Source: Escherichia coli
GTDB taxonomy: Bacteria > Pseudomonadota > Gammaproteobacteria > Enterobacterales > Enterobacteriaceae
Assembly (NCBI RefSeq): GCF_048403405.1
Contig: NZ_CP183129.1
Reading direction: 5' to 3' (one strand)
Length of the DNA stretch: 64,000 nt
Numbering within the stretch: the first letter of the stretch is position 1; each line of letters starts with the position of its first letter. The notes beneath the pieces were generated by a model that was not told where the DNA came from, searched no databases, and saw only the letters and a list, made by a program, of their open reading frames with translations. Below are positions 49,861-64,000 of this stretch, piece by piece. The translations under genes were made by a program, and so were the position numbers.

Positions 49861-49877
49861 GAATTAGTTCATGCCGT
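49861..49877 (-). other. fis: displaced 3' terminal fragment of fis; attachment-site junction of the mobile element
   Basis: Reverse complement reads ...a tac ggc atg aac taa = (K)YGMN-stop, the C-terminal codons of Fis, at the spacing from yhdJ expected for the fis stop; upstream of it the fis reading frame is replaced by unrelated sequence. Confidence 0.7.
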
Positions 49878-50055
49878 ATTATCAAAACCTATGTTTCTTA
49901 CAGTTTGTCATGGTTCGTTAGTGTTTATATAACTTATTGAATAAAATGATTAATGTTGTTTCTTTAGTTTACCTTTGTTCATTTCTGTTCATAGGGTAAT
50001 ATTAAAGTGTGCAGTCAGTGGTGCAGTCAGTTTTCAATATGAATTAAGGTTTTCT

Positions 50056-51279
50056 ATGGCTGGAGGAACGAACAAATTAAGCGATACATCGTTGCGTAAG
50101 ATGCTGGGGAGGGAAATCGATAGAGATAGATTTTATGCTGACGGTGATGGATTGAGTATCAAGGTGTCAAAAATTGGCGTTCTTACTTGGTATTTCTCTT
50201 TCCGGATTGGTGGGCGTGAATCGTATTCACAGCGTGTTAAGCTTGGAAACTACCCGGATCTTTCTCTGAAAGCTGCGCGCGAGAAACGTGAACAGTGTCG
50301 AGCATGGCTTGCTGAAGGTAAAAATCCAAAGCATCGGTTAAATGTGGCAATACATGAAACACTCAAACCAGTGACGGTAAAAGAGGCTCTGGATTACTGG
50401 ATCAGAGAATACGCCGTTTACAAGCGCACGAATGTTGATAAACACATTGAGCAACTGAGGAAGCATATTTTCCCCTATATAGGTGATTATCCGTTATCAA
50501 TGTGCGAAACCCGGCATTGGCTGGAGTGTTTCGCTAGAGTAAGGAATGACGCTCCAGTGGCAGCTGGTTATTTGCTGCAGATGTGTAAGCAGGCTCTGAA
50601 GTTTTGCCGCGTACATCGTTATGCGGTTAGCAATGCTCTGGATGACCTGACTATCGATGATGTTGGTAGAAAACAGAATAAGCGCGATAGGGAACACAGC
50701 AGTCAAGAGTTAGCAGATATTTGGCAGGAATGTTCAGGTAAGAAATTTAAACCATACTATTCATCGTTGTTGCGTCTATTGGTGGTGTTTGGATGTCGAA
50801 CCCAGGAGCTTCGGTTGTCACGTATTACAGAGTGGGATTTAAAGGATTGGATCTGGACAGTGCCTAAAGAACACAGCAAAGGCGGAGAGAAGATATTGCG
50901 CCCTATTCCAGTGGTAATACGCCCATTCATCCAACAGCTTATAGAGCAACACAAAAACTCAGGTCTTTTGTTGGGTGAAATAAAGAAACCAGAAGCTGTC
51001 AGCCAATGGGGGAGGATGATATATAAGCGTCTGGGGCATATTGAATCGTGGACACTTCACGACCTGCGCAGGACGTTTGCTACCACACTAAATAACATGG
51101 GGGTTGCACCACATGTTGTTGAACAGCTTCTCGGTCACACATTAGGTGGTGTAATGGCCATATACAATCGTAGCCAGTACTTACCAGAAAAACTAGACGC
51201 TCTAAATAAATGGATGGAACGGCTTGAGGTTATTTCTGGTCAGTATTCAAATGTAAAAATATTGAAGGTAGCGAAATGA
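50056..51279 (+). CDS. int: tyrosine site-specific integrase (P4-like, N-terminal arm-binding domain)
   Basis: ORF 49975-51279; start at MAGGTNKLSDTSLRKMLGREIDRDRFYADGDGLSIKVSKIGVLTWYFSFRIGG... ; C-terminal catalytic region HDLRRTFAT...LGHTLGGVMAIYNRSQY. Confidence 0.9.
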   Translation: MAGGTNKLSDTSLRKMLGREIDRDRFYADGDGLSIKVSKIGVLTWYFSFRIGGRESYSQRVKLGNYPDLSLKAAREKREQCRAWLAEGKNPKHRLNVAIHETLKPVTVKEALDYWIREYAVYKRTNVDKHIEQLRKHIFPYIGDYPLSMCETRHWLECFARVRNDAPVAAGYLLQMCKQALKFCRVHRYAVSNALDDLTIDDVGRKQNKRDREHSSQELADIWQECSGKKFKPYYSSLLRLLVVFGCRTQELRLSRITEWDLKDWIWTVPKEHSKGGEKILRPIPVVIRPFIQQLIEQHKNSGLLLGEIKKPEAVSQWGRMIYKRLGHIESWTLHDLRRTFATTLNNMGVAPHVVEQLLGHTLGGVMAIYNRSQYLPEKLDALNKWMERLEVISGQYSNVKILKVAK

Positions 51280-61790: not shown

Positions 61791-62078
61791 ACAGGAGCAA
61801 ACCAGGCTGATACGTGGACTGATAAGGCAGCGTGACACATGGAAGACACAGGAGACAGAGCACAAAGCCAACAGGACAGGGCGCACAAAACTCACCACAG
61901 CGAAGCGATTAACCGACCGTGACCGCGAGGTCATGGAATGTTTTCGCAATCGCTGGTGAGGCCGTCAGAGGGGGTGGGGGTGGTTTTCAGGACGAAACCG
62001 TCCCTGCCGGACACCGACCGCCCCCTCAAATTTTTGTGCACGGTAATTTTTTTGAAAATAATTGGGCGAAAAAAGAAC

Positions 62079-62435
62079 ATGGCAAGACCACCAAAAGCCC
62101 CCGCTTACCTGGATGAAATCGCGGTCAGGCAGTGGAAGGAAAAATCGCGCCAGCTTTCCGGGCGGGAAGACCTTACCCCCGCCGACTGGAGCAATCTGGA
62201 ACTGTATTGTGTTAACTACTCCATATACCGCAAAGCCGTCGAAGACCTTGCGACGCGCGGGTTCAGCATTGTTAACAGTCAGGGCAGCGAGAGCAGAAAC
62301 CCCGCACTGAGCGCAAAGGCTGACGCAGAAAGAATAATGATCAAAATGGCTTCTTTGCTGGGTTTTGACCCGGTAAGCCGTCGCAGAAATCCACCGGAAA
62401 CAGAGGAAGAGGACGAACTTGACCGCCTGGCATGA
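62079..62435 (+). CDS. terS: terminase small subunit (P27-like)
   Basis: ORF 61938-62435; start at MARPPKAPAYLDEIAVRQWKEKSRQLSGREDLTPADWSNLELYCVNYSIYRKAVEDL... Confidence 0.8.
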   Translation: MARPPKAPAYLDEIAVRQWKEKSRQLSGREDLTPADWSNLELYCVNYSIYRKAVEDLATRGFSIVNSQGSESRNPALSAKADAERIMIKMASLLGFDPVSRRRNPPETEEEDELDRLA

Positions 62436-64000
62436 GTACGCAGAAGGCGTAAAAAACGGCAAAATTACGGCCTGTAAACGACTGAAACAGGCCGTTAAAC
62501 GGTATTTTTCTGACCTTGAAAACTCCCTTTACACGTTCGATCCGGAGGTCGTGGAGCGGTTTATTGCCTTTTCCCGGGTGTGTCCGCACGTAAAAGGCGC
62601 AATGCGCGGTAGTCCCATTGAACTGGAGCCGTGGCAGCAGTTCGCCTTTGCCTGCATCCTGGGCTTTAAGGTTAAGGCCACCGGACGGCGCAAATACACC
62701 AGCGCATTCATTGAAGTACCGCGAAAAAATGCCAAATCCACGGTCGCCGCTATCCTGGCTAACTGGTTTCTGGTTATGGAAAACGGGCAGCAGGATATTT
62801 ACACCGCCGCCGTGAGTCGTGATCAGGCGCGGATCGTGTTTGATGATGCGCGTCAGATGTGCCTTTTATCCCGACCGTTACGAAAGCGGGTAAATATTCA
62901 GGCACACAAGGTGATACACCCGAAAACTAACAGCCTGTTAAAGCCACTGGCAGCAAAAGCGGCAACCATTGAAGGTACAAATCCGAGTCTTGCCATTGTG
63001 GATGAATATCACCTGCACCCTGACAACGGGGTTTATTCCGCACTTGAGCTGGGGATGGGGGCGCGTCCGGAGGGGCTGTTATTTGCCATCACCACATCGG
63101 GGAGCAACGTTGTTTCAGCCTGTAAACAACACTATGACTATTGCTGTCAGATACTGGATGGTGAAGAGATGAACGAATCCATGTTCGTTCTGATTTACGA
63201 GCTGGATGATGAAAGCGAGGTTGACGATCCGGCCATGTGGATAAAGGCGAATCCAAATATCGATGTTTCCGTCGATCGTGAAAAACTGGCCTCAACCATC
63301 CAGAAAGCGCGGGGTATTCCGTCGCAGTGGGTGGAAATGCTCACCAAGCGATTCAATATCTGGTGTCAGGGGGCTACGCCGTGGATGGGTAACGGTGCAT
63401 GGGCGGAGTGCGCCGGAACGTTCGCGGAGGCGGATTTATACGGGCAGGAGTGCTACGCGGGACTGGACTTATCATCAACCAGCGATATTTCCAGCGTGTG
63501 CTATGCCTTTCCGGTCGGTAAAAAGATTATGCTGGTTTCCCGTCACTATCTGCCGGAATTTCAGCTACAGAACCCCGCCAATAAAAACCGCGCCATCTAT
63601 CGCCAGTGGGTAAAGGCGGGCTGGATACGCACAACACCGGGTGACTGCATTGATTATGACCGTATCCGTGATGACATCATGGCGGATGCAGAGAATTTCA
63701 ATATCAGGCTGGTGGGCTTCGATACATGGAACGCCACGCACCTGAGGACGCAGCTACAGGGGGCAGGATTTGAGGTGGAGCCGTTCCCGCAAACATACCT
63801 TCGTTTCAGTCCGGCGGCGAAATCGTTCGAAGTTTTTGTTAACCGGAAGGTGATTGTGCATCGTGGTGATCCGGTGCTGGCCTGGTCAATGAGTAATGTT
63901 GTGATGCAGAGTGACGCGAACGCCAATATCAAGCCGAACAAGAAAAAATCATCCAACAAGATAGACCCGAGCGTTGCGGCGCTGATGGCGTTTGGCACAT
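62419..64000 (+). CDS. terL: terminase large subunit (partial; runs off window end)
   Basis: Open frame from a TTG at 62419 to the window end with no stop (hence absent from the ORF track); hand translation TAWHEYAEGVKNGKITACKRLKQAVKRYFSDL...AILANWFLVMENGQQDIYTAAVSRDQAR...LAIVDEYHLHPDNG shows terminase ATPase features. Confidence 0.75.
   Translation, partial: MTAWHEYAEGVKNGKITACKRLKQAVKRYFSDLENSLYTFDPEVVERFIAFSRVCPHVKGAMRGSPIELEPWQQFAFACILGFKVKATGRRKYTSAFIEVPRKNAKSTVAAILANWFLVMENGQQDIYTAAVSRDQARIVFDDARQMCLLSRPLRKRVNIQAHKVIHPKTNSLLKPLAAKAATIEGTNPSLAIVDEYHLHPDNGVYSALELGMGARPEGLLFAITTSGSNVVSACKQHYDYCCQILDGEEMNESMFVLIYELDDESEVDDPAMWIKANPNIDVSVDREKLASTIQKARGIPSQWVEMLTKRFNIWCQGATPWMGNGAWAECAGTFAEADLYGQECYAGLDLSSTSDISSVCYAFPVGKKIMLVSRHYLPEFQLQNPANKNRAIYRQWVKAGWIRTTPGDCIDYDRIRDDIMADAENFNIRLVGFDTWNATHLRTQLQGAGFEVEPFPQTYLRFSPAAKSFEVFVNRKVIVHRGDPVLAWSMSNVVMQSDANANIKPNKKKSSNKIDPSVAALMAFGT

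Follow-up and report, generated by a model that had tools for sequence, protein, structure and literature searches.

A very probable complete capsid-forming phage-inducible chromosomal island at the 3' end of fis in Escherichia coli

The last 14 kb of a 64,000-nucleotide stretch of the Escherichia coli contig NZ_CP183129.1 (assembly GCF_048403405.1; hereafter the window) hold most of a 15,285-bp element inserted at the 3' end of the global regulator gene fis, which is, with little doubt, a capsid-forming phage-inducible chromosomal island (cf-PICI), integrated and complete. The initial annotation, made from the letters of the window, had interpreted this region as a cf-PICI-type satellite, and this interpretation is supported by the collinearity of the region with the proven cf-PICI EcCIEDL933 and by its agreement with the size and content criteria published for these elements (bioRxiv 10.1101/2025.02.11.637232 and PMC10085698). 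These 15 kb are rightly labelled as a mobilisable satellite, and not as a defective prophage, while fis itself is left untouched.

Approximately 14.1 kb of the 15,285-bp island lie inside the window. Beyond the window end, the sequence was followed in E. coli strain 4621 (locus L001, where the window coordinate equals the L001 coordinate + 40,799), which matches positions 49800-64000 in a single piece with 2 mismatches in 14,201 nt. Megablast of this segment against 5,426 complete E. coli genomes, to which all genome counts below refer, recovered at least 80% of it in 19 genomes of varied hosts and sources. All the island open reading frames (ORFs) are intact, both in the window and in the near-identical copies.

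The boundaries of the island are defined by an exact direct repeat of 80 nt, whose two copies in L001 are 15,285 bp apart, the length of the island. The left copy, attL (49801-49880, ATAAAAAAGGCGCTTCCCCATGCCGAGTAGCGCCTTTTTAATCAAGCATTTAGCTAACCTGAATTAGTTCATGCCGTATT), spans the terminator hairpin of fis together with the final 17 nt of the gene and most of the fis–yhdJ spacer; its exact partner, attR, lies outside the window at the window-equivalent positions 65086-65165, where it overlaps the 3' end of an intact fis gene, with dusB and prmA next to it. The empty site is represented by K-12, which holds a single copy of the 80-nt block, bordered by the yhdJ flank of attL and, at its opposite end, by the fis flank of attR. 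The distance between the repeats, together with the single copy in K-12, indicates site-specific integration rather than a chance repeat. The fis terminator was missed by a simple terminator scan owing to its long loop, and its hairpin was revealed by folding.

The initial annotation had also placed a 17-nt remnant of fis at 49861-49877. The remnant is real, but lies 3 nt further on, at 49864-49880 on the minus strand, where (AA)TACGGCATGAACTAA is directly read as the last Fis codons and the stop (Y G M N stop; TAC GGC ATG AAC TAA), and from 49881 onwards the sequence is unrelated to fis. This stretch is, however, only the tip of the true identity block, and not the whole repeat. Nor does the proposal that the rest of fis had been replaced hold, since both Fis and the terminator are exactly restored by the integration: the Fis protein encoded beyond attR in the occupied genome is 100% identical to that of K-12. 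An effect of the insertion on the fis 3' end or its terminator, which had been considered possible, is unlikely because the 80-nt repeat includes the terminator, leaving a full copy of it at each junction. The length of the identity block further implies that the E. coli fis terminator and spacer are exactly duplicated in the attP of the island. The smaller fis PICIs of E. coli (9–10 kb) listed in the published table of PMC10111431 share only 17 nt (aatacggcatgaactaa), compared to the 80 nt found here.

The gene content of the island, where RefSeq annotation, PHROGs, Pfam, and NCBIfam are all in agreement, contains the integrase, regulators, replication module, and capsid and packaging genes that had been proposed. 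Its left module, encoded on the plus strand unless otherwise stated, starts with a tyrosine integrase pointing into the island (50056-51279; phrog_1, E 1e-59; Pfam Arm-DNA-bind_3 and Phage_integrase), followed by a hypothetical protein of 245 residues that occupies a variable slot between int and alpA (51276-52013; no match in PHROGs, NCBIfam, or PADLOC) and by an AlpA-family regulator/excisionase (52103-52324; Pfam PF05930, E 1.7e-14; phrog_2790). A YlcI/YnfO-family protein (52674-52979, minus strand; NCBIfam NF041551, E 5e-20) is divergent from the operon of an Icd-like, P4-type protein of the cell-division inhibitor/repressor family (53176-53379; NCBIfam NF033153; phrog_6196). Next come a hypothetical protein of 106 residues (53372-53692; phrog_15327, function unknown), a DUF4222 protein (53699-53998; RefSeq; phrog_285), and a replication protein of 605 residues with a P4-alpha-like helicase (53995-55812; phrog_864, E 1e-191). 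Further on, a hypothetical protein of 86 residues (56197-56457; phrog_1957) shows 38% identity to a protein of EcCIEDL933.

The right module is devoted to head assembly and packaging. It comprises an HK97-type major capsid protein (58055-59224; phrog_10, E 7e-93), a prohead protease of the HK97 family (S78; 59279-59839; phrog_80, E 3e-59), a portal protein (59841-61055; phrog_12, E 4e-118), a head-tail connector of the Ad1 type, gp6-like (61048-61350; phrog_40, E 2e-28), an HNH endonuclease of the packaging machinery (61350-61790; phrog_144, E 5e-45), a conserved protein of 61 residues between HNH and terS (61774-61959; phrog_3173), a small terminase of the P27 family (62079-62435; phrog_83, E 3e-38), and a large terminase (62419-64000), whose last 81 nt are cut off by the window end and whose full gene was taken from L001 (phrog_9, E 2e-180). 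Outside the window, terL is followed by an ORF of 93 residues (phrog_1561), with a counterpart also in EcCIEDL933, and then by about 720 nt without a credible gene up to attR. According to their PHROG categories, none of the 20 island genes, counted through L001 to attR, is a tail, baseplate, holin, or endolysin/lysis gene. The absence of such genes had been proposed from the window, and it now extends over the whole element: nothing resembling a tail or lysis gene follows terL, and the repeat at the far end is present beside an intact fis, the two points on which the satellite interpretation had been made to depend.

Compared to the published criteria, the 15,285 bp between exact 80-nt repeats fall within the range of about 10–18 kb expected for cf-PICIs. 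The left module holds the integrase, the AlpA-type regulator, and the primase/replicase module; capsid, prohead protease, and portal are encoded by the head region (PHROG E values between 1e-59 and 1e-118); and the packaging region contains HNH, small terminase, and large terminase. Of the two head-tail joining genes named in published definitions, adaptor and connector, only the Ad1-type connector is found. Tail and lysis genes are absent, with all 20 genes accounted for.

Two other explanations for such an element have to be weighed. The head and packaging genes are of the HK97 type, as would be expected if the region were a decayed HK97-like prophage whose tail and lysis modules had been deleted. 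Deletion, however, does not readily account for exact att ends 15,285 bp apart, with an equal length in independent genomes, nor for a left arm of the PICI/P4 type, with its inward int, alpA, icd-like gene, and alpha-like helicase. Prophages are described in PMC10111431 as having an outward int and no AlpA, and no prophage is recorded there among 3,565 elements at fis; here int points inward, AlpA is present, and tail, lysis, and immunity modules are all lacking. No close relative was found in the phage collection searched either, and a decayed prophage is accordingly considered very improbable. A satellite remodelling the capsids of its helper, as P4 does, would account for other features of the left arm—the alpha-like helicase, the TGTTCACC iterons, the Icd-like protein, AlpA, and the tandem arm repeats in the style of P4. 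Against it, capsid, portal, and terminase are all encoded by the island itself, the best PHROG matches of its 20 proteins include none of the sid, psu, or delta type, and its Int is only 25% identical to that of P4, so that a P4-like satellite is hardly credible.

Some observations weigh against the cf-PICI interpretation, or at least against a fully functional element. The head-tail joining functions are incomplete, as the Ad1-type connector stands alone, without a head-closure gene. Induction, capsid formation, and transfer are attributed to this island by homology, and mutation of any gene of the EcCIEDL933 packaging module abolished or severely reduced transfer. The island could therefore be transfer-defective or need an extra helper function. 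Moreover, the integrase is rare, being found in 18 of the 5,426 E. coli genomes and every time inside this island, a distribution compatible with a recent spread as well as with vertical inheritance in a few lineages.

The missing head-closure gene sets the island apart from four of its relatives. In this island, the portal gene is followed by a divergent connector allele and then directly by HNH, leaving no head-closure gene at positions 61040-61360. On the contrary, EcCIEDL933, the PEC148 island (with a packaging module 96% identical, but located in yifB), and the cf-PICIs at fis in DETEC-P61 and 21AR0133 all hold a gene for a 112-residue "phage head closure protein" between portal and connector. 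Two head-closure proteins gave no tblastn match in the island or the window, and the connector of the island is unrelated to the head-closure protein of EcCIEDL933. The same junction between portal, connector, and HNH is present in 142 of the 5,426 genomes, that of strain 042 included, at many chromosomal positions, and related packaging modules in 537. About one quarter of the E. coli cf-PICI packaging modules in this family lack the head-closure gene, which bears on tail specificity and head completion.

The adaptor/connector pair is known from the literature as a determinant of tail compatibility and a hot spot of swapping, and no statement was found there on islands with only one of its members. 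It is possible, though on the whole doubtful, that this lineage borrows the head-closure (stopper) protein of the helper along with its tail, or that its heads cannot be completed and the island is a vertically inherited cargo. Such a proposal would explain why a gene that EcCIEDL933, PEC148, and two other cf-PICIs at fis all possess is undetectable here by tblastn, in a part of the module on which tail compatibility depends. The frequency of the junction and the intact ORFs argue instead for a working mobile design rather than for decay, and 459 of 969 cfPICIs have already been counted with 10 of 11 components by SatelliteFinder. Because it is found in 142 genomes at many positions, the junction without head-closure gene is a successful design and not a lesion. 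For the last step of head completion, a protein of the helper is probably recruited, unless this type of connector can do without the step. When the phage collection was searched with the connector, the matches were all further satellite-like records, with no candidate helper among them. The island would be classed as "Type B" of SatelliteFinder, the commonest cfPICI class (PMC10085698), because it has 10 of 11 core components. The fis cf-PICI of 21AR0133 holds a gene annotated as "tail assembly protein" after terL, in the second cargo slot (L018 1562-2140), which is odd because cf-PICIs are defined by the absence of tail genes.

The cf-PICI arrived through recombination by its tyrosine integrase between attP and the fis 3' end, and the 80 nt that both share rebuild Fis and its terminator exactly. 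The remaining steps of its life cycle are modelled on EcCIEDL933. An induced helper prophage would turn on alpA, after which the island would be excised, replicate from its own origin, and build its own small capsids. HNH, TerS, and TerL would load one island-length genome per capsid, and the filled heads would take tails made by the helper, exit through helper lysis, and reintegrate at fis of a new host.

Integration at fis is by itself a well-documented property of PICIs. According to PMC10111431, the fis 3' end is a major PICI site, with 2,642 + 923 = 3,565 elements oriented opposite to fis. The same paper gives their identity-block consensus as TACGGCATGAACTAA, extendable into the terminator, and reports that one Klebsiella element excised within this block after mitomycin C. 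The island agrees with this description: attL and attR share the block with the fis terminus TACGGCATGAACTAA, identical in the orphan fis end and the published consensus, and the element runs opposite to fis. In addition, its integrase is 62% identical to that of another fis island, found in DETEC-P61, which ends in a Klebsiella-type attR.

Moreover, this very island has been catalogued. The PMC10111431 catalogue was assembled by integrase similarity, and its supplement lists Eco4384.15.fis in strain D8 (CP010151.1:4722942-4738226, 15,285 bp, 99.9% identical) and Eco4068.15.fis in CP015834.1, both with the identical 80-nt block. With 99.0–99.9% identity over the part in the window and the same length, block, and site, both entries are the same element as the one described here. 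Since the fis site is published and the island is catalogued as Eco4384.15.fis, neither this type of element nor this particular example is new, and nothing categorical is added here, cf-PICIs, the fis site, and this island all being in the literature. PMC10111431 maps these elements and calls them PICIs; the parts of it consulted contain no description of the capsid-forming nature, arm repeats, or cargo of this island. The additions are modest ones: the integrase-linked arm repeats, the modules without head-closure gene, and a cargo pair worth testing for phage interference.

The attachment site of the island shows a defined architecture. A doubled repeat of 12 nt (50008-50033, plus strand; GTGCAGTCAGTG GTGCAGTCAG, that is, GTGCAGTCAG twice), for which 0.09 copies would be expected in the window, is located 128 nt past the identity block, shortly ahead of the start codon of int, and is probably an arm-type integrase site. 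Its partner lies outside the window (L001 24260-24285), 1 nt before the attR block. In the reconstructed attP, two co-oriented doubled repeats flank the crossover at the fis terminus. The identical motif and layout are found at fis in Enterobacter soli and Buttiauxella massiliensis, where Int starts with the same residues. The integrase of the DETEC-P61 island, on the other hand, is most divergent from that of this island in the arm-binding N-terminus, and its doubled repeat differs (TGTATAAACA twice), although the positions are equal within a nucleotide or two.

The DETEC-P61 island is also informative about the crossover. Its attR (compared with attL over L007 545-622 and 17549-17626) carries a Klebsiella-type terminator and fis end with a TGA stop, only 86% identical to attL. 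The shared block that must contain the crossover is thereby narrowed to about GTTCATGCCGTA. The sequence of this attR points to a transfer between genera, and the accession of the integrase also suggests a Klebsiella source. Comparable arm repeats are annotated in the GenBank record of P4, from which the repeat features of this phage were taken: its attP core is flanked on each side by 12-nt arm repeats in tandem, with the farther pair next to int. The comparison suggests that fis PICIs share a P4-like arm-repeat architecture built with other repeat sequences, and the repeat sequence changes with the integrase. In PMC10111431, the doubled motif described in that work is stated to be absent from fis PICIs.

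A probable replication origin is found at 55827-56047, directly past the stop codon of the helicase gene, where eight copies of TGTTCACC are clustered in 221 nt with 32% GC. The whole window contains 13 copies of this motif, compared to 2.25 expected, and TGTTCACC is the sequence annotated as "ori type 1 repeat" in the ori and crr of P4. The replication protein itself is 48% identical, over its residues 113-595, to residues 290-771 of P4 alpha, which hold the helicase and origin-binding functions, and has a different N-terminus. Judging from its sequence and position, the cluster is very probably the origin of the island.

At the opposite end of the element, outside the window, a structured non-coding region precedes attR (L001 23869-24185, window-equivalent 64668-64984). 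Within it, a segment of about 125 nt (L001 23913-24035) folds into four near-perfect hairpins, with z of about -7 for either strand. Matches to parts of the region occur in 1,171 E. coli genomes. The hairpin segment itself recurs almost unchanged in a classical PICI of strain E105, and is absent from EcCIEDL933 and PEC148. An Rfam scan of the whole island at E <= 0.1 gave no match.

Between the origin and the capsid gene, the island holds two cargo genes on the minus strand with 35% GC, namely hyp258 (57031-57807, with the RefSeq start at 57795) and its downstream partner hyp169 (56492-57001). Unrelated genes fill the same slot in other cf-PICIs, where immune systems are expected according to the literature. 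Neither protein has a useful match in Pfam, NCBIfam, or PADLOC, and sequence searches of the PDB with family profiles returned none. The hyp169 family is conserved and widespread across Gammaproteobacteria, with proteins of about 168 residues; its genes stand alone in other cf-PICIs, and outside satellites they are found beside an Abi_C protein, Xre regulators, and IS elements. Homologues of hyp258 are restricted to Enterobacterales and form 24 clusters, several of them on contigs as long as those with the closest hyp169 relatives.

Structural models offer some hints on these proteins. For hyp258, a helical bundle is predicted, which gave no informative fold match, while the predicted N-terminal domain of hyp169 resembles phage stopper/head-closure proteins. 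The possibility that hyp169 is the displaced head-closure gene of the island was considered and rejected as the simple explanation, as a hyp169-like gene coexists with a head-closure gene in the fis cf-PICI of 21AR0133, and the family also occurs outside satellites. A further feature of hyp169 is a conserved RHIM-like segment, FNI-x7-QVQ(V/L)G-xx-N, together with a hydrophobic tail. A C-terminal segment, FNI-x7-Q-(V/L/I/F)-G-x-x-N, with a helix after it, is common to both families and agrees with the RHIM core tetrad (V/I)-Q-(V/I/L/C)-G (PMC9444067); paired bacterial amyloid-signalling motifs have been reported from multicellular bacteria only. A role in defence or interference is our best guess for this pair, but the more specific proposal that hyp258 and hyp169 (56492-57807, minus strand) form an undescribed satellite-borne anti-phage or helper-interference module appears unlikely. 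If true, it would represent amyloid-like paired signalling or the mimicry of a neck protein in an enterobacterium, and it might have a part in the way cf-PICIs that lack a head-closure gene achieve head-tail joining or compete for it.

To the left of the island, the core synteny runs as had been described, with acrF and acrE (minus strand), acrS (plus strand), and yhdU and yhdJ (minus strand) as far as 49778, followed by a short spacer. In strain 4621, an IS1 element lies between acrS and yhdU (L001 7036-7733), whereas none is found at 48629-48640 in the window, whose acrS encodes 220 residues. The window must therefore derive from another strain, despite the near identity of the two islands.

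Among known systems, the closest to this island is EcCIEDL933 from E. coli O157:H7 EDL933, the cf-PICI prototype (Alqurainy et al., bioRxiv 10.1101/2022.09.08.507074). According to that work, its induction requires alpA, it makes small capsids by itself, its packaging-module genes are required for its own transfer and not for that of the helper, and the tail genes of the helper are required. Helper-induced excision, self-made capsids, and helper-tail-dependent transfer are known for EcCIEDL933 and a few others, and the small T=4 capsid for EcCIEDL933 only. Fifteen of the 20 island proteins have collinear homologues in EcCIEDL933, with identities of 31–93%: Int 54%, AlpA 64%, and Icd-like 50% in the left arm; major capsid protein 63%, protease 62%, portal 81%, and connector 56% in the head region; and HNH 84%, the 61-residue protein 75%, TerS 88%, TerL 93%, and the 93-residue protein 75% in the packaging region. 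Both elements also share the gene order from int to terL with the trailing 93-residue ORF, the lack of tail and lysis genes, and a similar size (15.3 kb here and 15.4 kb for EcCIEDL933). Despite these similarities, clear differences exist. EcCIEDL933, which was located in the EDL933 chromosome between roxA and phoQ and not at fis, has an integrase only 54% identical, a replication protein of the DUF927 type instead of the P4-alpha-like one, the head-closure gene absent from this island, and SSB and PerC as cargo.

The head and packaging genes connect the island to HK97 and its relatives with HNH-dependent cos packaging, with which it shares the capsid, S78 protease, portal, gp6-like connector, HNH, P27-family TerS, and TerL, in line with the derivation of the packaging module from HK97-like phages proposed in the cf-PICI literature. 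Unlike these phages, the island lacks the genes for tail, lysis, and lysogeny control. The left arm, on the other hand, resembles that of P4 in the tandem 12-nt arm repeats that flank the attP core, the TGTTCACC origin iterons beside a replication gene whose helicase/origin-binding domain is 48% identical, and the Icd-like and AlpA/Vis-like regulators. However, P4 has sid, psu, and delta and uses the P2 capsid protein, whereas this island carries a capsid, portal, and terminase of its own.

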